Source of the DNA: a virus
Length of the DNA stretch: 64,000 nt
UHGV virus genome: UHGV-1366171
Reading direction: 5' to 3' (one strand)
Notes under the pieces: model-generated
The model's database searches: none
Told to the model about the DNA's origin: nothing
Seen by the model: the letters and a program-made list of their open reading frames with translations, nothing else
Translations under genes and position numbers: made by a program
Shown here: piece after piece, positions 2,899 to 26,343 of the stretch
Layout: each line of letters starts with the position of its first letter
Numbering within the stretch: position 1 is the stretch's first letter

Positions 2899-4116
2899 AT
2901 GGAAGATCGTGATTTATTGCAGTATGCTCTTGAACATGATATGATAAGTATGTCATATATTCAGGAACAAGTAAACATGAACAAAAGAAAGGAAATATTA
3001 GAAAAACACCCGTATAAAATTTGGGAAGGAAAAGACGGAAAATGGAGAACATATATTCTCGATGAAAATGGGAAAAGAATTTTAAAAAAGCTTTCGACGA
3101 AAAAAGCAGTGCAAAATATTATTGTGAGTTATTACGAGAATATAGAAAAAGCAAAGACTGAAGATTATAGCTTTCATTCATATTTTCAAAAATGGAAAGA
3201 AAAGCAGGTTTCTTATGGAGTTTCAAATAATACGTTGACAAAGTATGATTCGGATTATAAGCGATATTTTGAAAATTCGAAATTTGAAAAACTTGATATA
3301 AGAAAAATCAATGAAGAAGATATTACCGCTTTTGTTATTCAGCAAATCAAAAAGCTGAACCTCAAAGAAAAAGCGGGAAAATCGCTTATGGGATATATAA
3401 ACGGAGTTTTTAAACACGCGAGAATAAAAAGAATAATATCAGAAAACCCTTGCGAATACGTCGAAACAAGAAACTTTTCGAAGTTTTTTAATCGGGATAA
3501 AAAAAACCCTGAAGAAAGAACCATTAATACTAACGATTTGAATCTTTTATTGAAACAATTATATATTAGCCAAACCCAAAAACCTCATTATATACCGAAT
3601 TATGCGGTAGAATTAGCTATATATACCGGAATGAGAATTGGGGAAATAACTGCATTAAGGTGGGAAAATATTCGCGAAGATCTGGGGGTTATTGTAATAT
3701 GTTGCTCCGAAAAGCACGATAGAATAACTAAGGAATACATCGTTGATTCTACAAAAACCAGAAAAGAACGTCAATTCCCTATTACTCAAAAAATTTCAAG
3801 CTTACTTTATAAAGTGAAAAAAATAGAAATGCAGTATGGATTTCTTGGCGAATACATATTCCAGAATGAAAACGGAAAACTCCATTCTTCTTCTATCGCT
3901 CATTGTATACGTTATAGGTGTATACAGGCCGGAATTCCAGAAAAAAGCATCCAATCACTAAGGCGAACATTAAATTCAAAATTAAGATGTGCTGGTGTGT
4001 CAAGCATTGTTGCAGCATCAATGCTTGGACACACAGAAGAAGTTAATGCTTTAAATTATAGTTATGATATTTCTGAAATGGATTATAAAAGAGAGATATT
4101 ATCCGAGATTATTTGA
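2899..4116 (+). CDS. tyrosine site-specific integrase (phage integrase family)
   Basis: C-terminal catalytic region LAIYTGMRIGEITALRWENI ... LRRTLNSKL ... LGHTEEVNALNYSY (R, K, HxxR, Y nucleophile context). Confidence 0.8.
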   Translation: MEDRDLLQYALEHDMISMSYIQEQVNMNKRKEILEKHPYKIWEGKDGKWRTYILDENGKRILKKLSTKKAVQNIIVSYYENIEKAKTEDYSFHSYFQKWKEKQVSYGVSNNTLTKYDSDYKRYFENSKFEKLDIRKINEEDITAFVIQQIKKLNLKEKAGKSLMGYINGVFKHARIKRIISENPCEYVETRNFSKFFNRDKKNPEERTINTNDLNLLLKQLYISQTQKPHYIPNYAVELAIYTGMRIGEITALRWENIREDLGVIVICCSEKHDRITKEYIVDSTKTRKERQFPITQKISSLLYKVKKIEMQYGFLGEYIFQNENGKLHSSSIAHCIRYRCIQAGIPEKSIQSLRRTLNSKLRCAGVSSIVAASMLGHTEEVNALNYSYDISEMDYKREILSEII

Positions 4117-6768: not shown

Positions 6769-6866
6769 TTGATTTTTACCTTTTCACCCTGTTATAATGG
6801 GTTTTCCTTTCTTTTTGATTGGTGCCGCTGGTTTAGCTACTCAGGCCGTTCAGCGGCTTTTTTGTT
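6769..6866 (+). ncRNA. candidate short transcript (consensus promoter directly followed by intrinsic terminator)
   Basis: TTGATT-N17-TATAAT at 6769-6802, then CCGCTGG...CAGCGG hairpin + TTTTTTG at about 6826-6866. Confidence 0.25.
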
Positions 6867-6938
6867 TGTTCCTCCGCTCTGCATTTTTCCAGGCTTGCGA
6901 CTAGCTTCGGCTGCATTAGAGGGCCGGACGTGTCCGGC

Positions 6939-7148
6939 TTAATGTCCGCAGTCAAATTCTGGTGTATCTTCAGCAAGTTTTCTAATATTTTGATTAAGTG
7001 TATGTTTTTCATTGTATTTTAAAGTTTCCACTTTTTTCGTTGCGCGGTTAAAAACAGTTGATGAACCGGTAGCAATATCGCTATCAAGTACTTTACAGAT
7101 TTGAATTGTTCCGTTTACCATTTTCCCAACATATACAGATTTTAACAT
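6939..7148 (-). CDS. hypothetical small protein
   Basis: minus ORF, GGAGG RBS (plus CCTCC at 7156-7160), terminator hairpin GCCGGACGTGTCCGGC at its 3' end. Confidence 0.45.
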   Translation of the reverse strand: MLKSVYVGKMVNGTIQICKVLDSDIATGSSTVFNRATKKVETLKYNEKHTLNQNIRKLAEDTPEFDCGH

Positions 7149-17733: not shown

Positions 17734-17743
17734 AGGCTTATTT

Positions 17744-17832
17744 TGGGCTATCGCCAAGCGGTTAAGGCACCGGGCTTTGACCCCGGAAGAGAAGGAACGC
17801 TCTTTACGCTGGTTCGAATCCAGCTAGCCCAG
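17744..17832 (+). tRNA. class II-type tRNA (long variable arm) with apparent UUG anticodon
   Basis: TGGGCTA-TC-GCC/AAGCGGTTAA/GGC-A-CCGGG/CTTTGAC/CCCGG-21 nt variable arm-GCTGG/TTCGAAT/CCAGC-TAGCCCA-G; T1-A72. Confidence 0.45.
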
Positions 17833-18054
17833 TTGGTTTCTGATTTTGGCATAGAAACTTTCTCCACCACCTACGGCGCAAGGCTGTGACAAAAGGAGAT
17901 TCAAATGCTCCGGGTGGTTTTGTCCGACTACTGTTTGAGGACGTAAAATAAAAGAACAGCGTGTAGATTGGCGGTAAGGCGATACGATTCTAAATACCGC
18001 ATGGTGCCTAAAGCAGCACGATAAATAATGCAAAAACGGGAGAAATCCCGTTAC

Positions 18055-18128
18055 GGATCATTAGCTCAGATGGTGAGAGCCGTTGCCTCATAAGCAGAAG
18101 GTCGTAGGTTCGAGTCCTACATGATCCA
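18055..18128 (+). tRNA. tRNA-Met/Ile2 (CAT)
   Basis: GGATCAT-TA-GCTC/AGATGGTGA/GAGC ... loop CTCATAA ... GTAGG/TTCGAGT/CCTAC-ATGATCC-A. Confidence 0.75.
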
Positions 18129-18187
18129 TTCCGCCATAGCTAGTACCCTTTGGCTGTCAGGTACGGCAGCGGCTATGGTAGGAACCA

Positions 18188-18270
18188 CGAGACGTAGCTA
18201 AATTGGCAGAGCACTGAAAGCCGGATACAACTATGTACAGAAGACGGCGGTTCGAATCCGCCCGTCTCGA
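18188..18270 (+). ncRNA. tRNA-like RNA: perfect acceptor (CGAGACG/CGTCTCG), D-arm and T-arm but no foldable anticodon arm
   Basis: 32-nt central segment CTGAAAGCCGGATACAACTATGTACAGAAGAC gives no 5-bp/7-nt anticodon hairpin. Confidence 0.4.
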
Positions 18271-18464
18271 TTTTACCACTTAGCAGGATGGGTATACCTG
18301 CTACGAAATCCTGTGAAAAAACTTTTCTAGAGAGATAAGACCAAAGGTCGTGAGGAGCAGTAGTCGGTGATTCTGGAAGATTCCCGGAAGTATGAGATGC
18401 AAAACGCCGTAAGTCTGTGGTACCTGCGACACGTTAATTGCATGGTGGTTTTATAAGGGAATAC

Positions 18465-18536
18465 GCCGATATAGTTCAATGGTAGAACGCTACACTTGTA
18501 ATGTAGATGCTATTGGTTCGAGTCCGATTATCGGCT
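18465..18536 (+). tRNA. tRNA-Thr (TGT)
   Basis: GCCGATA-TA-GTTC/AATGGTA/GAAC-G-CTACA/CTTGTAA/TGTAG-ATGCT-ATTGG/TTCGAGT/CCGAT-TATCGGC-T. Confidence 0.75.
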
Positions 18537-19026
18537 TTCGTATGGAGACTTGTGCAGATACCAATTCGCGGAATGGCAAACAGAAACTAGTGCTCTATAC
18601 GTAAATTACAGCAATTCAGATGGCCGGTACATCGGCGGCGCAATAAGCCGTGAATGGTTGCTGATAAGACTGAGATCCAGGAACTAAGGCGCGTATAATG
18701 TTGCCTGGAGGGAAAATATCAAATGGGTTTGGCCACCAGGAGATATGTTTTTCGGTAAAGTGCGGGGGTATTTTATCATGCTCAGTCTTTAATCTATCTG
18801 CCAAGTGCAGAAAAGGAATCCGGTTTTCGTATGACGATTACTGGTTTTAGCTCATGTACCAAGTGCACAAGGAGCATTCGACGCAGATGATGATAAAATA
18901 TGCGTTTGAGGTGAAAATCAACCTATGCAGTCTGCGGATTGCATAACCGTGATAGGCGATATTATATACCGGCATCGTTTGAAAAGAAATCCGAGTAAAA
19001 GCCAACTTTTCTTACCTTGTCGGTTC

Positions 19027-19100
19027 CGGGATGTAGCGTAGTTTGGTAACGCGCCTAATTTGGGATTAGGAGATCGTCGGTTCAAATCCGGCCATTCCGG
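19027..19100 (+). tRNA. tRNA-Pro (TGG)
   Basis: CGGGATG-TA-GCGT/AGTTTGGTA/ACGC-G-CCTAA/TTTGGGA/TTAGG-AGATC-GTCGG/TTCAAAT/CCGGC-CATTCCG-G; C1-G72 as in bacterial tRNA-Pro. Confidence 0.75.
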
Positions 19101-19289
19101 TTGCGGCAATGTACAAATGGCATGAAACGTGAGGATTGATTTGTATTCCATTTTATGAATTGCGTGGATTGCTGTTTCGTTGTACGCATAGTTCTGATTC
19201 AACATTCAAAGTTCGGTACGTGGCCGCACAGACAGGCAAATGCCAGATGTTGATTAGCCCCACACAGCCCTTGTGGACAAAAATGGGCA

Positions 19290-19451
19290 TGGATAGTGGC
19301 GGAAGTAGACGCTAAGGGCAAGCATACATAGGGAGAACAGCGTAAGCCGACTGCAGGGCAGTCAAAAAGGCCATAGCAGTAACCCTGAATTATACTAAGG
19401 GGTTATATTAGATTCGGGGTGTGCGTGTGGGTATCAAATCCCACCTATCCA
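19290..19451 (+). ncRNA. tRNA-like RNA with about 100-nt insertion in place of the anticodon/variable region
   Basis: perfect 7-bp acceptor TGGATAG/CTATCCA, D-arm-like GCG/GAAGTAGA/CGC, T-like arm GTGGG/TATCAAAT/CCCAC abutting 3' acceptor. Confidence 0.35.
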
Positions 19452-19501
19452 TTCCTTAGAACTGCAATCTGAGGAAATTTGTTTATTTTCTTTCAAAGGT
19501 T

Positions 19502-19621
19502 CTGGCAGAGGTTTCAATGGACGAAACGCTCATCCGCAGGCTAATAATACTTGGTAAATAGAAGCCATTCAAGGGGATGGCTTCCGGGGACAGAAATGGG
19601 GAGTTCGATTCTCCCCTGCCA
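19502..19621 (+). ncRNA. tRNA-like RNA with expanded centre (contains 8-bp hairpin GAAGCCAT/ATGGCTTC)
   Basis: perfect acceptor CTGGCAG/CTGCCAG, T-arm GGGAG/TTCGATT/CTCCC, D-like GTTTC/AATGGAC/GAAAC. Confidence 0.35.
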
Positions 19622-19874
19622 GATCGGGTGCATTGTTGTAGACAGCACTCATTTCATTACGCCAAGCCGCCTCACTATCGCTACGGTGGGGCGATATTTA
19701 AAGAGATAAATGAGGAGAATTAGATGGTGTCGCCGGTTATTAATCAGTGTTACATACAACATAGTGATTTGAGAAACTGTCAAAAAGAAATTCTAATTAC
19801 ATATCAAACATTGAACGGAGGAAGATTTGCAAAACAGGTTTTGTGTAATTATAGACGAGTGGAGAAGAAAATAA

Positions 19875-20051
19875 ATGGGAAAAGCAAAACGTAAACCAAG
19901 GCCACAGCCAGCAAGATGGTATTGGTGGGATAGCGATAATTGCTGGGATTGTAAAAATCGGAATAATTGCAATCAGTGCAAAAGAATGAAGCGGCAGAAG
20001 ACTTATAAACGTGAAAAAAAGGAGAGAAAGCAGAAGTATGAGCATGACTGA
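19875..20051 (+). CDS. hypothetical Lys/Cys/Trp-rich mini-protein (58 aa)
   Basis: MGKAKRKPRPQPARWYWWDSDNCWDCKNRNNCNQCKRMKRQ...; RBS GGAG. Confidence 0.25.
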   Translation: MGKAKRKPRPQPARWYWWDSDNCWDCKNRNNCNQCKRMKRQKTYKREKKERKQKYEHD

Positions 20052-20856: not shown

Positions 20857-22056
20857 ATGAATGAAGAAGATAAGGGAGACCAAGAAAGGATGCTAAAGAG
20901 TTACAAGACGGAAATCAATCCAACTATGGAACAAATACATAAAATCAATAAAACAATTGGCACTTGCCGTTTTGTATACAACTTTTATCTTGCCCGCAAC
21001 AAAGAAGTTTATGAAAAAGAGAAGAAATTTGTATCTGGAATGGAGTTCTCAAAATGGCTAAATAATGTTTATTTAAAAGAGAATCCAGAGTATGTATGGA
21101 TAAAAGAGGTTAGCACAAAATCGGTAAAACAAAGCATTATGAATTCCGAAAGATCTTTTAAGAGATTCTTCAAAGGACAGTCCGGTTTTCCTAAATTCAA
21201 GAAGAAAGGAAAATCGGATGTAAAAATGTATTTTATGAAAACAAATTCTCAGACAATAATAACATGCGAAAGACACCGAATCAAAATATCGACACTCGGA
21301 TGGGTTAGATTAAAAGAAAAGGGATATATTCCTTGGGATTCAAATACTTACATTATCAAGAGTGGTACTGTTTCTTGTAGAGCTGGACGATATTATGTAT
21401 CAGTCTTGGTTGAGCAACCAGAAAGAGAAAGACTACAATTACAAGATTTTGGATTTGGAATTGACCTTGGTGTTAAAAATTTTGCGGTTATAAGCAATGG
21501 GCTTGTAAAGAAAAACATCAATAAAACAAATAAGGTAAAAAAATTAGAAAAACAACTAAAACGAGAACAACGGTGTCTTTCTAGGAAATACGAAAGTTTA
21601 AAGAAGAATAATAAGAAAGGAGAGTCTTCCAGAGAAAATATTCAAAAACAAATATTAAAGGTGAAAAGGCTTTATTGCAGGATAGACAATATCCGCACTG
21701 ACTACATCAATAAAACAATAGCTGAGATTGTGAAAACCAAACCATCTTATATCGCTGTTGAAGATTTGAATGTATCAGGTATGATGAAGAACAGGCATCT
21801 TTCGAAGGCTGTTGCATCACAAAAATTTTATGAATTTAGAGTGAAATTGGAAGCAAAATGCAAAGAATATGGAATTGAATTGAGAATTGTAGACAGATGG
21901 TATCCATCCAGTAAACTTTGCCATGAATGTGGTTGTATCAGGAAAGACTTAAAACTTTCTGACAGAGAATATGTGTGCGAATGTGGATATCATGCAGATA
22001 GAGATTATAATGCAAGTCTTAATTTAAGAGATGCCACATCCTACAAAGTAGCATAA
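20857..22056 (+). CDS. tnpB: TnpB (IS200/IS605-family OrfB, RuvC-like + C-terminal zinc finger)
   Basis: N-terminal OrfB_IS605 region (KTEINPT...GTCRFVYN), C-terminal CHECGC...CECGYHADRDYNASLNL zinc finger. Confidence 0.8.
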   Translation: MNEEDKGDQERMLKSYKTEINPTMEQIHKINKTIGTCRFVYNFYLARNKEVYEKEKKFVSGMEFSKWLNNVYLKENPEYVWIKEVSTKSVKQSIMNSERSFKRFFKGQSGFPKFKKKGKSDVKMYFMKTNSQTIITCERHRIKISTLGWVRLKEKGYIPWDSNTYIIKSGTVSCRAGRYYVSVLVEQPERERLQLQDFGFGIDLGVKNFAVISNGLVKKNINKTNKVKKLEKQLKREQRCLSRKYESLKKNNKKGESSRENIQKQILKVKRLYCRIDNIRTDYINKTIAEIVKTKPSYIAVEDLNVSGMMKNRHLSKAVASQKFYEFRVKLEAKCKEYGIELRIVDRWYPSSKLCHECGCIRKDLKLSDREYVCECGYHADRDYNASLNLRDATSYKVA

Positions 22057-22421
22057 ACAAGCATTTGCAGGTATGTACCGATGGCTAGTCGGGAATTGAC
22101 GACTGTGGAGTGTACAAGAACTTGTGAGTAGTATCTGTATTTACTCAGGGCGAAAGCATATACAGAGAAGCAGTAAGAAATGTTCGCAAGAACTTTCAAT
22201 ATCTCGATATGGATATCTTTGTTCATATTTTGAGTAGCAGCCAAGCGTAAGCGGAGATTGAAAAATTTTTATATTCACAGAATCGAGATGAAAAAATGTA
22301 AAACAAGCAAAATCTTCTATGTAAATAGAAATAGAAGTTAAGTAAAATAAGATGAAATAGTAAAATGAGAGTCATTTGAGAGCCAAATTTCTTACTAAGT
22401 AGGGAAGGAGGCTCTTTTGTT

Positions 22422-24131
22422 TTGCGAGAAGGAACGCTTGAATGGTACAAAAAAATTTTTTCGGAAATCTTAAAAGACGACATGACACAATACCAAAACC
22501 AAATAGATAGCTGGCAGCTTCTTTTGAATATGAAGCAAGATTTAGGTTTTGAGGATAAAGAAATTCGTGATTATGCTATGAAGATCAGCCAGTACACACA
22601 CAAGATGGCTGACTATGTAGCAGGGCAGACGGGAAGCGGAAAGTTTAATGATTTGTACTATAAATTGTTATTGTTGGAAGCTCAAAATTATCAAGTGGAT
22701 AGCGGACTTCTATATCTGGAAAAAAATAGAGTTCCCAAGGAACGATTTTATGAGCCGCGCCGAGAGGTTTTTATAAAGCACCAAATTATCCAGTCATTAC
22801 AGGATTTGATGGATGATAAACTTGATATTTTTGCTTTGAGCGTTCCACCGGGTTGTGGTAAATCAACTCTGGAAGATTTTTTCTTATCCCTTGTTGGTGG
22901 ATGGTTCCCAAATGATTTTAACCTATCCTCAGCGCATAGTAGCATTTTGACCCATTCCCTTTATGATGGCGTATTGGAAATTATAAATGACCCGGTAGAG
23001 TATACATGGCATGAAATATTTCCTAATGTAAAGCTGACTGGAACAAATGCTAAGGAAACCACAGTAAACCTCGAAAGGAATGGGCGATTTAAAACATGGA
23101 CTTTTCGTTCCATAGATGGTTCGTTGACGGGAGCCACAAGATGTAATCGTTTTTTGACAGCAGATGACTTGGTATCTGGAATTGAAGAAGCACTGAACAA
23201 GTCACGCCTGGAAACACTTTGGACAAAGGTTGTGAATGATCTTCGTTCCAGACGACTTGAAGGGTGTAAAGAAATCTATATTGCCACAAGATGGTCTGTC
23301 CATGACCCGATTGGAAAACTACAACAGCTATATGAAGGAAATCCCAAAGCCAGATTTATTGCGGTTCCGGCTTTGAACGAAGATGGCGAGAGTAACTTCA
23401 TGTTTGCGGTGAATGGATTTTCAAAGAAATACTTCATGGACGCTAAGGAATCTATGGATGATCTATCCTTTAAATGCCTGTATCAGCAACAGCCGATTGA
23501 GCGAGAGGGATTACTATTTCCTACAGATGAACTGCGCCGCTTTTTCTTCAATCGGGAGCAAGTACCGGAAAAGCAGACAGAGTTTATTATTATGCCAGAG
23601 CGGACGCCTGATGCTATATGGGCGGTGTGCGATACAAAGGATACAGGAGCGGATTTTGAATCTTTACCGATTGCATATCAATTTGGAGAAGATTTTTTTA
23701 TACCGGATGTAGTATTTGATGACACAACAGATTATGACACATTGGATATGAAATCCGCTAATATTTTGATTCGACACAATCCCCATAAGATAAGGTTTGA
23801 ATCAAATAGTGCAGGAGGCAGAGTCGCGCATAATGTTCAAAAATTGATAGATGGAAAATGTCGAGCACAGATCGAGCCTGAGAGAACACAAGCGAACAAA
23901 GAAACCAAAATATTAGTCAATTCTGATTGGATTAAAAAACACTGTATATTTTTAGACCCAAGTTTATATACGCCAAAATCAGACTATGGTTTGTTCATGG
24001 AAAATGTGGTTACATATACAGTCAAAGTTAAGCCGCCACATGATGATGGGCCAGACTCTCTGGCAATGCTTGCAGAATATGTAGCAAGGCCAGTGCAAAA
24101 ACCAACAACAATAATCAATAGTCCGATTTGA
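22422..24131 (+). CDS. terminase large subunit
   Basis: TTG start with RBS GGAAGGAGG; ATPase region SVPPGCGKST; 569 aa typical TerL size and position before portal. Confidence 0.7.
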   Translation: MREGTLEWYKKIFSEILKDDMTQYQNQIDSWQLLLNMKQDLGFEDKEIRDYAMKISQYTHKMADYVAGQTGSGKFNDLYYKLLLLEAQNYQVDSGLLYLEKNRVPKERFYEPRREVFIKHQIIQSLQDLMDDKLDIFALSVPPGCGKSTLEDFFLSLVGGWFPNDFNLSSAHSSILTHSLYDGVLEIINDPVEYTWHEIFPNVKLTGTNAKETTVNLERNGRFKTWTFRSIDGSLTGATRCNRFLTADDLVSGIEEALNKSRLETLWTKVVNDLRSRRLEGCKEIYIATRWSVHDPIGKLQQLYEGNPKARFIAVPALNEDGESNFMFAVNGFSKKYFMDAKESMDDLSFKCLYQQQPIEREGLLFPTDELRRFFFNREQVPEKQTEFIIMPERTPDAIWAVCDTKDTGADFESLPIAYQFGEDFFIPDVVFDDTTDYDTLDMKSANILIRHNPHKIRFESNSAGGRVAHNVQKLIDGKCRAQIEPERTQANKETKILVNSDWIKKHCIFLDPSLYTPKSDYGLFMENVVTYTVKVKPPHDDGPDSLAMLAEYVARPVQKPTTIINSPI

Positions 24132-24665: not shown

Positions 24666-24822
24666 TGTAAAAGTGGAAAAAACAAGAGAAAACAGATTGA
24701 AAGATTATAGAAGAATAAAAGGAAAGAAATGGGTAGACATACCAACCAAATTTGAAAAGCGTGTGTCGGGTTCCGGGGTCCAATTTGGCGGAAAGTATGT
24801 AAAAACATAATGGGTGGTAAGA

Positions 24823-26343
24823 ATGAAACTTGCAGGAAGAAGAAAGATATTAACAGATGAAAAACAAATAACAGAAAAAAATATTATTCCTGTTCTTCAA
24901 AAAGCATATTCTAAGCATCGGATAAACGCCTGCGAAATGCAATTTCTTATAGATTATGAAATTGGTGTGCAGCCATTACCATACCATAAAATTGTGCGCC
25001 CAGAAATAAATATCCAAACTACCGACAATATGGCTAACTATGTGACAGAGTTTAAGAAGGGATATTTTTGGGGGATTCCTCCTATTTATACGCAGAGAGG
25101 AAATCAAGAACCGCATGATACAGATGAGGATATAGACAGTTCCGGGATTTCAGCTTTAAATGAAATGATGCTGAATGGAATTTGCATAGGTGCAGAAAAT
25201 CAGAAATTAGCAGATTTTGTGGAAAAAACAGGTATAGGGCATAGGTTGATTGGTGTTAAAACAGAATGGGAAGATGAAAAAATTCAGAGTTCCTATGTAA
25301 ATGTCAACACTTTGGATTCCAGATTTGCCTTTTGTGTCTATCATAATGGTGTCGGGCAAAAGAAGGTTTTGGGTGTCACCTATGTTAAAAGTGGGACAAA
25401 GAATTTGTTTACCTGTTTTACTGACAAGCAGCGGTTTGAGATTGAGGCAGGGAAAATTGTAGATATCCGGGCAAATCTGCTGGGCATGATTCCAGTTGTG
25501 GAATATGAACGCGCGGTTGATAGGACAGGTTGCTTTGAGCGGCAAATTGACCTTATGGACAACCTCAATTCCTTGGTGTCAAGCGTAGCGAATGATGCAG
25601 TGCAGCGAACGCAAGAAATCTGGTGGGCGCATAACACGGACTTTCCAGTAAACCCAGAAACGGGAGAGGAGGTTACTCCTAAGAGCGGACAATGGGTGAA
25701 AACGTATAGCGCAGAAGGGAAAGACGCAAAGATAGCTCCTTTGTCGAGCACATTGGATTCGGCTCCGGTTTTAGAGAATATCACAACGACACGCAATGAG
25801 ATTTTGAAAAGGTGTTTTGTTCCAATGCAATACTCATCCGAAGGAGGAGGAAGTACCGGGATAGCCACGGACACTATGTCGGGATGGAACGCTACAGCAG
25901 TTGACGCGGCTAGGGAAGAACAGCTTGTACAGGGCGCAGCCAGAGAAGAACTAAAATTGATATTGCGGGCAATAAGTTTTGCGTCAACAGATAAATTGCC
26001 ATCGGATAATCCTTTGAGGAAAATTCATCATACTGATATTAATATCCACTTCGTCAGACAGAAAAATTATGACTTGAATAGTAAAATAAATGCAAGCGCA
26101 GCGGCAGTCAATATAGGCGTACATCCTAGATGGGCGTTACAGATGGGCGGCGGCGTGTGGCCGGATATTGAGCAAGTATGGCTTGATAGCAAGGATACTA
26201 TGGAAGCATACCAGAAGTCTTTGTTTGACAAGGATAAGGAAAATGAAGCACCAGAACGGCTGACACAGGATGAATCAGACCAGACAGAAAATAGCCCTGG
26301 TGTAGATGGGATGCAAACAAATAATTCAAAGCAAATAGTTTAA
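24823..26343 (+). CDS. portal protein
   Basis: about 500 aa after TerL; acidic C-terminus; SPP1-type portal size; ATG with GGGTGG RBS (alt GTG 24814). Confidence 0.6.
   Translation: MKLAGRRKILTDEKQITEKNIIPVLQKAYSKHRINACEMQFLIDYEIGVQPLPYHKIVRPEINIQTTDNMANYVTEFKKGYFWGIPPIYTQRGNQEPHDTDEDIDSSGISALNEMMLNGICIGAENQKLADFVEKTGIGHRLIGVKTEWEDEKIQSSYVNVNTLDSRFAFCVYHNGVGQKKVLGVTYVKSGTKNLFTCFTDKQRFEIEAGKIVDIRANLLGMIPVVEYERAVDRTGCFERQIDLMDNLNSLVSSVANDAVQRTQEIWWAHNTDFPVNPETGEEVTPKSGQWVKTYSAEGKDAKIAPLSSTLDSAPVLENITTTRNEILKRCFVPMQYSSEGGGSTGIATDTMSGWNATAVDAAREEQLVQGAAREELKLILRAISFASTDKLPSDNPLRKIHHTDINIHFVRQKNYDLNSKINASAAAVNIGVHPRWALQMGGGVWPDIEQVWLDSKDTMEAYQKSLFDKDKENEAPERLTQDESDQTENSPGVDGMQTNNSKQIV

Follow-up and report, generated by a model that had tools for sequence, protein, structure and literature searches.

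The window that we analyzed is a stretch of 64,000 nucleotides of the virus genome UHGV-1366171, and it carries the tRNA gene cluster of a prophage (host Blautia). Within this cluster, we found three RNA genes, A, B, and C, that have the top half of a tRNA and in which the anticodon arm is swapped for other RNA. All three are on the + strand. The same array contains canonical tRNA genes that are identified by both ARAGORN and Rfam, and the 3′ CCA is encoded neither by these canonical tRNAs nor by A, B, or C. The array-carrying prophage is found on hundreds of human-gut contigs. The canonical tRNA genes are:

17743-17833, + strand, tRNA-Gln(UUG)
18055-18128, + strand, tRNA-Met
18465-18536, + strand, tRNA-Thr(UGU)
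19026-19101, + strand, tRNA-Pro(UGG)

We scanned the window and shuffled windows for a signature made up of a 7-bp acceptor stem and an adjacent T arm. The + strand of the window contains eight such sites, which are five tRNAs, A, C, and an element at 12283-12391; B was missed because of its odd T loop. In the shuffled windows (n = 20, both strands), we found 0-2 sites each, with a mean of approximately 0.35. A and C have a canonical acceptor stem, 5-bp T stem, and 7-nt T loop; in B the stems are canonical but the T loop has 8 nt, a non-canonical feature that is absent from an earlier, sequence-only reading of this DNA. A canonical anticodon arm (5-bp stem and 7-nt loop with U33) is present in none of the three. 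That reading had described three elements with a perfect 7-bp acceptor stem, an abutting T arm, and no canonical anticodon arm, and our analysis confirms both positions and structure; its coordinates were correct for A and B, but C ends at 19622 rather than 19621.

At its default settings, ARAGORN calls none of the three elements. With lowered thresholds and introns allowed, it made marginal calls for A and C only and never called B; we rejected these low-threshold calls as marginal and mutually inconsistent. Rfam searches at gathering and permissive thresholds (E up to 10) found no family that matches B or C, and its intron and ribozyme families had no match between 17000 and 23000 (E up to 10), a region in which the inserts measure approximately 10-113 nt. 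The Rfam tRNA model matches A alone of the three elements, and it does so only by accommodating 21 nt in the place of 11, with three of the five anticodon-stem pairs formed. The earlier expectation that standard tools would not take these elements for ordinary tRNAs is borne out by Infernal with Rfam, which finds nothing for B and C and an enlarged anticodon region in A; with ARAGORN it holds at default settings for the window's own elements but not for a 1-nt variant of A, which is called.

On the array strand of this phage group, we counted 41 tRNA-like elements that are 110-139 nt long and 18 that are 160-189 nt long, as compared to a handful on the opposite strand. A tRNA-like class with a conserved 12-nt loop and covarying stems is present in three phages. 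When we compared the array by BLAST to 50,697 cultured or deposited phage records, only generic tRNA-level matches were returned, and in the literature we found no description of such a tRNA-like RNA class. A promoter and terminator scan of the array was uninformative except for the hairpin after B, and the longest antisense matches of the inserts within the window were 9-11 nt, which is the chance level.

Element A has the following parts, read from the sequence:

18188-18270, + strand, element A, an 83-nt tRNA-like gene (also matched by the Rfam tRNA model, 48.7 bits)
18188-18194 / 18263-18269, + strand, acceptor stem CGAGACG/CGTCTCG, seven Watson-Crick pairs
18197-18212, + strand, D arm
18214-18240, + strand, aberrant central region, either a 21-nt loop closed by a 3-bp stem or a CCG anticodon arm with mismatches
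18246-18262, + strand, T arm GGCGG-UUCGAAU-CCGCC, abutting the 3′ acceptor strand
18270, + strand, discriminator base, A

In A, the insert is an enlarged, poorly paired loop that replaces the anticodon arm; in the alternative fold of the central region, a CCG anticodon arm with G33 is accompanied by a 15-nt variable arm. The copies of A are near-identical (1 of 83 nt differs, between arrays that are 94.6% identical overall), and we found no diverged homologue. The variant with the 1-nt difference, present in the related loci L191 and L193, is called by ARAGORN at default settings as a marginal tRNA-Arg(ccg) with G33 and two mismatches in the five anticodon-stem pairs. The T arm of A is that of tRNA-Met2 of relatives but the 5′ half does not match, suggesting that A is a chimera. 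From these comparisons, A appears to be a weaker case than B and C, with no comparative evidence of selection.

Element B consists of a tRNA-Leu-like shell and a cargo, and it is followed by a hairpin. Its shell was read from the sequence, the element as a whole from the sequence and homologues, and the structure of the cargo core from RNAalifold:

19250-19288, + strand, conserved 39-nt motif UUGAUUAGCCCCACACAGCCCUUGUGGACAAAAAUGGGC directly upstream of B, approximately 90% conserved in L001 and L008
19290-19451, + strand, element B, a 162-nt RNA made up of tRNA-Leu-like shell and cargo
19290-19296 / 19445-19451, + strand, acceptor stem UGGAUAG/CUAUCCA, seven pairs
19298-19313, + strand, D arm, tRNA-Leu-like
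19314-19426, + strand, cargo of type a (from the sequence)
19322-19327 / 19419-19424, + strand, closing helix GCAUAC/GUGUGC of the structured cargo core (core 19322-19424)
19350-19362, + strand, optional hairpin in the loop of the core's GCC/GGC helix
19379-19406, + strand, hairpin of the core
19427-19444, + strand, T arm GUGGG-UAUCAAAU-CCCAC with the 8-nt non-canonical loop
19452-19476, + strand, hairpin between B and C with a covarying 8-9-bp stem and loop GAACUGCAAUC, then a U-rich tract; terminator-like in the scan

The D arm and the T arm of B are 113 nt apart. The B-type D arm, UGGCGGAA...AGACGC, carries what we take to be a tRNA-Leu signature, in comparison with E. coli tRNA-Leu. In seven tRNA-Leu-like shells, the acceptor and T stems all pair while their sequences differ, so that the stems covary. 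The discriminator base is variable (U in the window, A in L001). The window's B has lost both the D-loop GG and the canonical T-loop UUC, and the L166 shell as well as B types a, b, and c are missing elbow nucleotides; given these losses and the 8-nt UAUCAAAU T loop, the tRNA elbow may fail to form in the window's B. We retrieved B homologues with a pattern that requires parts of the shell, so the conservation of the shell partly reflects the search; independent of this pattern are the T-arm identity, the shells of L166, L187, and L001, and the unrelated cargos. When the pattern GGATAGTGNCGGAAGT was run on IMG/VR, it gave 66 matches, among which only L001/L018 and L008 are real B homologues and the remainder are chance. 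A related copy of the 39-nt upstream motif is present in L074, ahead of a different cassette.

In B, the anticodon arm is replaced by a structured cargo of approximately 110 nt, and relatives swap unrelated cargos on the tRNA-Leu-like shell. Cargo types a, b, c, and d sit on one such shell and are mutually unalignable (z ≤ 1.6 versus shuffles), in contrast to the control alignment of type a with its own variant (z = 17). In the loci searched for them, types a-d occur only inside B shells. Further cargos are carried by the B-like elements of L166 (type e) and L187 (type f), the latter of which keeps the B acceptor while its D and T arms differ. These families are small, with 2-4 sequences each for types a, b, and d and a single distinct sequence for types c, e, and f. 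Type a, analyzed with RNAalifold on four sequences, has three compensatory pairs and U-G to C-G changes with no disruptions, and its alignment contains a clean 16-column indel that corresponds to a 13-nt hairpin and flanking A's. Type d has five compensatory pairs and no disruptions; the two sequences of type b have one-sided changes only, with pairing kept.

Element C is downstream of the hairpin. The acceptor stem, D arm, and T arm were read from the sequence and the other parts from homologues:

19502-19622, + strand, element C, a 121-nt tRNA-like RNA with five distinct homologues
19502-19508 / 19616-19622, + strand, acceptor stem CUGGCAG/CUGCCAG
19511-19527, + strand, D arm
19529-19536 and 19585-19597, + strand, invariant core strands
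19537-19553, + strand, hairpin 1
19554-19560, + strand, invariant linker GUAAAUA
19561-19584, + strand, hairpin 2, 8-10 bp
19599-19615, + strand, T arm GGGAG-UUCGAUU-CUCCC

The anticodon arm of C is replaced by a three-way junction with an invariant internal-loop helix (internal loop C-A / G-A-C) and the invariant GUAAAUA linker, and the central domain, which contains hairpin 2, spans approximately 70 nt. The core (CUCAUCCG / GUAAAUA / CGGGGACAGAAAU) is the same in all five distinct versions of C: the core strands and the linker are fixed, while the acceptor stem, the T stem, and both hairpins are free to vary. Across this small family of five distinct sequences, 11 of the 36 pairs are changed on both sides and 98.2% of cells are paired, as compared to 34-55% when the partners are slid as a control. 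The sources of these five sequences are Blautia-type prophages and MAG contigs that bear the labels Mediterraneibacter and Lachnoclostridium. A search with the C-core pattern found only L008 in IMG/VR and gave 15 matches in GTDB genomes, two of which are real; a C covariance model found no members among approximately 70 more distant relatives.

The order of B, covarying hairpin, and C is found in six lineages. The stem of the hairpin covaries in L155, L158, and L163, and L166 has an analogous hairpin between its B-like element and C; the B-hairpin-C unit of L166 is free-standing, has a terminator-like hairpin of its own, and has no neighboring tRNAs. In three lineages, the position of C is taken by a 44-nt acceptor/T-arm minihelix with covarying stems. 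We infer that B and C act as a linked pair.

Comparison with relatives gives evidence of selection on B and C, in the form of covariation and invariant cores, and shows that their inserts are conserved in homologous arrays rather than decaying at random. Judging from these sequences, B and C are probably working non-coding RNAs and not broken tRNAs. The proposal of the sequence-only reading that the elements are tRNA mimics or decoys stands in a general sense, in that B and C are conserved, structured, non-decoding tRNA-like RNAs. The explanation that we favor, with a probability of roughly 0.6, is that the three genes derive from tRNA genes and encode non-decoding RNAs, which are built on a tRNA scaffold and processed by the tRNA enzymes of the host. 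RNase P, RNase Z, the CCA-adding enzyme, and T-loop modification enzymes recognize the top half of a tRNA, and it is this half, the acceptor stem stacked on the T arm plus the D arm, that each element keeps. From their shape alone, the RNAs would be excised from the array transcript by RNase P and RNase Z, would receive CCA, and would be stabilized like the neighboring CCA-less tRNAs. The shell would be a processing and stability module and the insert an effector module that most likely binds a protein or a second RNA. An accessory role in host takeover or counter-defense would be in keeping with the cassette-like swapping seen among close relatives.

A further step, which we propose tentatively and regard as possible but doubtful, is that B shells with swappable cargo and a constant partner C form a natural tRNA-scaffold platform, in which a chassis derived from tRNA-Leu serves for the expression and stabilization of interchangeable structured RNA effectors, used by prophages and by at least one bacterial locus that does not look like phage. 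These effectors may be decoys or aptamers against host defense or tRNA-handling proteins, and an arms race would have left its mark in the swapping of cargo among near-identical phages.

The window also encodes a DUF2828/DUF7788/vWA protein (PHROG name 'RNA-binding protein'), and YrlA-like candidates at 12192-12519 lie directly upstream of this putatively Ro60-like gene. The segment 12192-12300 matches the Rfam YrlA model (RF02553) with 43.3 bits, below the gathering score of 69; the permuted order of YrlA is found in 12192-12300 by this match and in 12423-12519 by eye. The YrlA-like RNAs contain the motif (U/A)ACAGCAA, as do RNAs upstream of DUF2828 genes in 21 of the 22 loci examined, which represent a handful of independent lineages. 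Searches of PDB sequences with phmmer and with a 7-sequence profile of DUF2828 found no Ro60. A single-sequence AlphaFold model (pLDDT 43) was too poor for use, and the homologue search gave close relatives, with at least 83% identity among the 120 matches listed. Since RNAs with (U/A)ACAGCAA regularly precede DUF2828 genes, the idea of a phage Ro60-like ribonucleoprotein is open to direct testing. In the window, A, B, and C all lack the exact motif, and we therefore rejected the idea that a common ACAGCA motif ties B or C to DUF2828.

If A, B, and C were Y-RNA-like cofactors of the neighboring DUF2828 protein, each would join a tRNA-like part to a protein-binding module, as YrlA does. The window does pair such a protein with YrlA-like RNAs, the DUF2828 gene lies inside the tRNA array in 25 of 80 related phages, and an unpermuted tRNA-like family with an expanded anticodon region (F1) occurs in 14 of the 25 DUF2828-positive and 0 of the 55 negative relatives. 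Two cargos of B also come close to the motif, type a with ACAGCG and type b with ACAGCAG. However, these are not the exact motif, and the three elements lie 4-6 kb downstream of the DUF2828 gene. The elements and the gene also occur apart: L157 (the stretch of a 68-kb contig between homologues of the flanking genes) has a 100%-identical C and a type-a B but no DUF2828/YrlA cassette, L155 has B with no DUF2828 within 5.5 kb upstream, and L191 and L193 have DUF2828 and A while B and C are absent from the array region examined. A family with a related shell (F2) is found mostly in DUF2828-negative phages. For A, B, and C, the connection to a Ro60-like system drawn in the sequence-only reading thus finds no support, and we consider a cofactor role unlikely.

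Quite unlikely, in our view, is that the elements are processing punctuation, that is, minimal RNase P/RNase Z substrates that mark the ends of the conserved spacers or of the downstream mRNA and whose inserts have no function of their own. This would suit the spacers being better conserved than the genes between them, the cargo-free 44-nt minihelix that in three lineages stands in C's place directly upstream of the next gene's conserved leader, and the 53-nt spacer after tRNA-Gln, which is itself minihelix-like. Punctuation has no need, however, for the invariant core and linker of C or for the compensatory changes in B types a and d, and it leaves the stand-alone B-C unit of L166 unexplained.

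The sequence-only reading had also offered decaying pseudogenes; that the three elements are tRNA pseudogenes in decay, or recently rearranged ones, we consider very unlikely. The absence of a diverged homologue of A, its chimera-like make-up, and the loss of the canonical D-loop GG and T-loop UUC in the window's B would be expected of pseudogenes, but the covariation and invariant cores of B and C are not. In A, the damage is limited to the anticodon region (7 of 7 acceptor pairs, 5 of 5 T-stem pairs, and canonical loops are intact), and A has changed at a single nucleotide while the arrays around it diverged further. The pseudogene reading therefore falls for B and C and is less firmly answered for A, of which we have undiverged copies only.

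Still less probable is that the elements are unusual decoding tRNAs, or tRNAs from which introns are removed. At low thresholds, ARAGORN offers two readings of A, tRNA-Arg(ccg) and a tRNA-Cys interrupted by a 7-nt intron, and takes C for a tRNA-Leu(caa) whose intron would be 32 nt long; the 1-nt variant of A clears the default threshold as tRNA-Arg(ccg). The model of A, however, has G33 in place of the near-universal U33, mismatches in 2 of its 5 anticodon-stem pairs, and a variable arm of 15 nt, where tRNAs of this type normally belong to class I. The region between the D and T arms of B differs throughout between relatives, with no anticodon arm conserved, and the intron boundaries proposed for C cut through both invariant and covarying structure. 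At approximately 55-113 nt, the inserts fall far short of a group I intron, and none of the Rfam intron or ribozyme families matched them. The idea of intron-containing tRNAs put forward in the sequence-only reading is thus not upheld, since the conserved parts hold no anticodon stem-loop and the inserts are too short for group I.

The least credible alternative, a highly improbable one, is that A, B, and C are tmRNA-like or are aminoacylated carriers that act off the ribosome, the tRNA-Leu-like shell being charged by an anticodon-blind synthetase so that the RNA delivers an amino acid or enters the ribosome: the topology agrees (acceptor, D region, helix-closed long insert, T arm, acceptor), the B-type D arm presumably resembles tRNA-Leu, and LeuRS, SerRS, and AlaRS do not read the anticodon, but position 3:70 is G-C or U-A and not G3:U70, ARAGORN's tmRNA search is empty at default and low thresholds, the unrelated cargos exclude a conserved tag reading frame, the discriminator base of B is not conserved, and B types a-c, like the L166 shell, have lost elbow nucleotides.

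Taken together, these data suggest that A, B, and C are non-decoding RNAs on a tRNA scaffold, and in this form they resemble several known systems. The usual view of phage tRNA genes is that they supplement codons or, in more recent work, that they replace tRNAs which host defenses destroy; here, much of a phage tRNA cluster can be non-decoding RNA on a borrowed tRNA processing part. Like tmRNA (SsrA) in its one-piece form, the elements have an acceptor stem stacked on a T arm, a D region, and a long helix-closed insert in place of the anticodon arm. Unlike tmRNA, they are 83-162 nt rather than roughly 350 nt, have no G3:U70 and no tag frame, and carry exchangeable, unrelated inserts. tRNAs with group I introns also have an insertion at the anticodon region of a tRNA-shaped gene, but the inserts here are 4-10 times too short, have no group I core, and are flanked by no anticodon stem. 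In mascRNA at MALAT1 and in the tRNA-miRNA units of MHV68, RNase P or RNase Z is brought in by a module of tRNA shape, which stabilizes or releases an RNA, and the engineered 'tRNA scaffold' for recombinant RNA holds its cargo in the position of the anticodon arm. All of these bear an attached RNA on a tRNA shell, in the scaffold at the same site as here; they are eukaryotic, viral, or synthetic, whereas the elements described here are natural and bacterial or phage-borne, with exchangeable cargos and a constant partner RNA.

T4 species 1 RNA (rnaC) is a small stable RNA in a phage tRNA cluster with a large non-tRNA body. In its sequence, we found a canonical T arm, CCGGG-UUCGAAU-CCCGG, adjoining an acceptor-like 3′ strand. 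In contrast to A, B, and C, its 5′ and 3′ ends pair imperfectly; it shares no sequence similarity with them and belongs to another host range and phage family. We know of no function, shell-cargo modularity, or partner RNA for T4 rnaC. A, B, and C fit a class of this type descriptively (location in a phage tRNA cluster, tRNA-like T arm and acceptor end, non-tRNA body), with no homology detected.

In YrlA and other bacterial Y RNAs (Rfam RF02553), which are encoded in phages as well as in bacteria, a tRNA-like module is joined to a functional helix (Chen et al., 2014, PMC4201824). The likeness lies in this modularity, a tRNA-like module with T arm, D arm, and acceptor-like stem plus another helix. 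YrlA, however, has a circularly permuted order within a closing stem (T arm, closed acceptor hairpin, D arm) and adjoins a Ro60 gene, whereas A, B, and C follow the normal order, leave their acceptor ends open, are 4-6 kb away from DUF2828, lack ACAGCAA, and occur without the gene. If our reading is confirmed, annotators have grounds to keep odd or pseudo tRNA calls in phage arrays, and experiments in a culturable host, Blautia hydrogenotrophica, have defined candidates in C's invariant core and B's cargo types. A natural, modular tRNA-scaffold RNA class would then join tmRNA, the Y RNAs, and the unexplained stable RNAs of T4.

The window is a temperate phage that encodes an integrase (2899-4116), antirepressors and a Fic protein, along with the large terminase subunit (22422-24131) and a portal protein (24814-26343). 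Because its DUF2828 protein is 100% identical to a protein named by NCBI from Blautia hydrogenotrophica that is present on 563 contigs (the largest of 3.59 Mb), we regard the phage as a common gut prophage of Blautia. The relevant features are:

12114: tRNA-Asn, apart from the array
12192-12300: permuted YrlA-type (bacterial Y RNA family) tRNA-like RNA; Rfam YrlA 43.3 bits, E = 3e-8 in a local search, gathering score of 69 not reached
12311-12396: T-arm-bearing element
12423-12519: second permuted YrlA-type module
12537-13991: DUF2828/DUF7788/vWA protein
17743-19622: tRNA array (tRNA-Gln, Met, Thr and Pro with A, B and C)
18188-18270, + strand: tRNA-like element A
19290-19451, + strand: tRNA-like element B
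19502-19622, + strand: tRNA-like element C

The sequence-only reading had described perfect 7-bp acceptor stems with adjoining T arms, and we found these in all three elements (7/7 acceptor pairs each); its coordinates are correct for A and B, and its end for C is one base short of the true end at 19622. In A, a D arm is present and the T arm is canonical. The D arm of B is tRNA-Leu-like and its T arm has a 5-bp stem and an 8-nt UAUCAAAU loop; a 113-nt insert separates the two arms. C has a GG dinucleotide in its D arm and a canonical T arm, and its central domain, about 70 nt long, contains a hairpin of 8-10 bp. ARAGORN at default settings calls none of them. The Rfam tRNA model matches A at 48.7 bits with a distorted anticodon region (21 nt where 11 are expected, 3 stem pairs kept); B and C have no match in an Rfam scan to E up to 10. 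A scan for 7-bp acceptor stems directly adjoined by a T arm gave 8 sites on the window's + strand and 0-2 in shuffled windows.

We compared the window with related loci on phage, prophage and MAG contigs (L numbers), which came from DUF2828 and terminase searches of IMG/VR, one metagenome scan with the B-shell pattern, one GTDB scan with the C-core pattern, and contigs encoding DUF2828 homologues. In phages at 75-80% terminase identity, tRNA-Gln and tRNA-Met always open the array and variable cassettes come after them, and spacers are frequently better conserved than the cassettes they separate. Long tRNA-like elements on the array strand of relatives number 41 in the 110-139 nt range and 18 in the 160-189 nt range, with only a few on the opposite strand. 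In L193, the host smpB gene (1-342) forms the left flank of a closely related prophage.

The window's tRNA-Gln(UUG) (17743-17833) is 91 nt long, with a 21-nt additional hairpin in the variable region that is unusual for a class I tRNA; its L001 homologue has an additional hairpin of another kind, and in most relatives the tRNA-Gln is normal, at 72-74 nt. The 53-nt spacer that follows (17866-17918) is strongly conserved, is also present in L181, L184 and L187, and folds into a minihelix-like structure with ends ACCACCU/GGGUGGU and a T-arm-like hairpin inside. Another conserved spacer (18600-18670) carries UUACAGCAAU inside a helix of CAGCAAUUCA and UGAAUGGUUGCUG and recurs in L155 and L158, with no DUF2828 gene found near either copy. 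Just downstream of the array, at 19876-20049, a small ORF of about 58 residues reads by eye as very basic, cysteine-rich and zinc-ribbon-like. A RAGATH-18 RNA (22102-22176, 62.2 bits) follows a TnpB gene (20857-22056) with HTH_OrfB_IS605, OrfB_IS605 and Cas12f1-like TNB domains; L157 has a near-identical copy, and TnpB is at other positions in L002 and L187. L155 carries a RAGATH-27 RNA (6795-6879, 84.9 bits, exceeding the gathering score) and a permuted tRNA-like module at about 6920-6980 with no DUF2828 nearby, and L001 a type II hammerhead ribozyme (1038-1104, - strand).

Element B consists of a tRNA-Leu-like shell (acceptor UGGAUAG, D arm GCGGAAGU.AGACGC, T arm GUGGGUAUCAAAUCCCAC) and a cargo between the D and T arms. 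We found the same shell with cargo a in the window, L008 and L160, b in L154 and L155, c in L159 and L163, and d in L001, L158 and L175. These cargo types are mutually unalignable (z ≤1.6 versus shuffles, as compared to z = 17 for type a against its own variant), and none of types a-d was found outside a shell among the loci searched for them. In type a there are 3 compensatory pairs, changes from U-G to C-G and a clean indel, which deletes one hairpin, and in type d there are 5 compensatory pairs; the two type b sequences differ by one-sided, pairing-preserving changes only, and type c is one distinct sequence. The identity of the B shell is partly imposed by the search pattern, a gap covered by shells found independently of it: L166 (cargo e), L187 (cargo f; acceptor shared, D and T arms different), a second L001 shell, the 136-nt F2 family and a 101-nt L008 element. 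These have 7/7 paired acceptors and fully paired T stems with differing sequences. In types a, b and c and in the L166 shell, loss of the D-loop GG coincides with loss of the T-loop UUC, which suggests that the tRNA elbow has been abandoned there.

Element C is known in five distinct versions (window, L175, L160, L166 and L187), and the window's version is identical in L008, L157, L156, L161 and L190. In a model-fitted alignment, 98.2% of cells are paired and 11 of 36 pairs are changed on both sides (5/7 in the acceptor, 3/5 in the T stem, 1 in hairpin 1 and 2 in hairpin 2); when the partners were slid by 1-3 columns as a control, pairing was 34-55% with at most 1 pair changed on both sides. 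An independent MAFFT alignment of four C sequences agrees with this picture. For hairpin 1 there are two forms, CAGG-9 nt-CYUG and a stem of 4 bp with a GAAA/GAAG cap, and hairpin 2 takes three unrelated forms. Four parts are invariant: the D arm, the linker GUAAAUA and two strands, CUCAUCCG and CGGGGACAGAAAU, able to pair as a helix with a C-A / G-A-C internal loop. Because these parts stay the same while the hairpins vary, they are the signature of a putative specific recognition surface.

B and C are linked. Directly after B comes a hairpin whose stem covaries and whose loop is GAACUGCAAUC-like; it is followed by C in six lineages, by a minihelix in three and, in the L001 type, by a tRNA-like element of 76 nt in which a 12-nt loop is conserved. 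The minihelix (L155 7835-7878, L158 and L163) is 44 nt long and consists of an acceptor stem and a T arm, with linker AAUGGCAUAC; both stems covary between lineages. In L166 (3042-3338), a Mediterraneibacter MAG contig, a B-like shell with new cargo, the hairpin and C form a stand-alone unit with a terminator-like hairpin after C, zero tRNAs within 8 kb, and barstar-like and flotillin genes as neighbours. The unit also lies beside a truncated ORF that is by eye a candidate radical-SAM N-terminus. The 12-mer GAACTGCAATCT occurs twice in the window, at 12054-12065 upstream of the tRNA-Asn and Y-like RNAs and at 19459-19470 as the loop of the covarying hairpin after B. In a tRNA-like class of 76-79 nt (L001 16442-16517, L074 2820-2898, L185 13849-13924), the anticodon arm is replaced by a stem of 4 bp whose 12-nt loop, AYACAUGAACUG, is conserved, and covariation is seen in the acceptor, T and inner stems.

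Element A is known from near-identical copies only. Its T arm matches that of the relatives' second tRNA-Met, and its 5' half does not. In L191 and L193, one C-to-U change just 5' of the T stem lets A pass ARAGORN default as tRNA-Arg(ccg), in a model with G33, two anticodon-stem mismatches and a poorly paired 15-nt variable arm. A could be an odd decoding tRNA, or a pseudogene; we lean towards a non-decoding RNA because its defects are all confined to the anticodon region and related phages have other conserved tRNA-like genes with disabled anticodon arms. In L008 (5910-6010; L157 5937-6038), a different 101-nt element occupies A's slot between spacers about 97% identical to the window's; it is tRNA-Leu-like (Rfam tRNA 38.1 bits), with a long variable arm and a 5-bp stem with a 3-nt loop at the anticodon-loop position.

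The idea of mimics for a Ro60-like protein fits other RNAs, and not A, B and C. The 12192-12519 RNAs lie directly upstream of the DUF2828 gene, and in each of them a closing stem precedes ACAGCA(A/G). Of 22 loci examined (window, L001-L005, L075-L153), which represent a handful of independent lineages down to 36-39% protein identity, 21 have 1-3 copies of (U/A)ACAGCAA within 520 nt upstream of the DUF2828 gene, against a background of 0.68 per kb. Placed just 3' of a 7-nt stem strand, the motif is a candidate site for binding by DUF2828 proteins. In sister phages, the DUF2828 gene is inside the array in 25 of 80 loci; F1, an unpermuted tRNA-like family with the motif, precedes it in 14 of these 25 and is present in 0 of the 55 negative loci. 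F1 members are 113-119 nt long, have a canonical D arm and an inner hairpin, contain CUACAGCAAU and in every case lie 165-350 nt upstream of the DUF2828 gene:

L130 4700-4813: F1
L086 2344-2460: F1
L075 4389-4505: F1
11 other loci: F1

In contrast, the exact motif is absent from A, B and C. In the stretch examined, L157 keeps B and an identical C with no DUF2828/YrlA cassette between the flanking gene homologues, and L191 and L193 keep DUF2828 and A with B and C absent from the examined array region. For these reasons the Ro60 link, which fits the 12192-12519 and F1 RNAs, is unlikely for A, B and C. Sequence and structure comparison did not confirm the likeness of DUF2828 to Ro60; the pointers are a vWA/MIDAS motif, the PHROG label 'RNA-binding protein' and the adjoining sub-threshold YrlA match.

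Taken together, the anatomy, conservation, covariation, modularity and linkage of the elements support the tRNA-mimic reading, in its general sense, for B and C. Decaying pseudogenes, also proposed, are rejected for B and C, and intron-containing tRNAs for the elements as a whole. In established tRNA enzymology, the acceptor/T-arm minihelix is the part that RNase P, RNase Z and the CCA-adding enzyme recognise, and in Firmicutes CCA-less tRNA precursors mature through RNase Z and CCA addition. A, B and C would therefore be released from the array transcript in the same way as the neighbouring tRNAs, which also lack CCA, and would accumulate as stable RNAs, with the insert as the probable working part of each. 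Cargo is exchanged between near-identical prophages, which suggests an accessory role, perhaps in counter-defence or host takeover.

Literature searches returned no account of phage-array tRNA-like RNAs built from a shell and an exchangeable cargo. The topology is like that of tmRNA, but tmRNA identity features are missing from the elements; the modular logic is like that of YrlA, but YrlA has a permuted order and is linked to its gene. The closest classical precedent, likewise of unexplained function, is T4 species 1 RNA (rnaC); examined directly, it has a canonical T arm beside an acceptor-like strand and a large foreign body, in a phage tRNA cluster.
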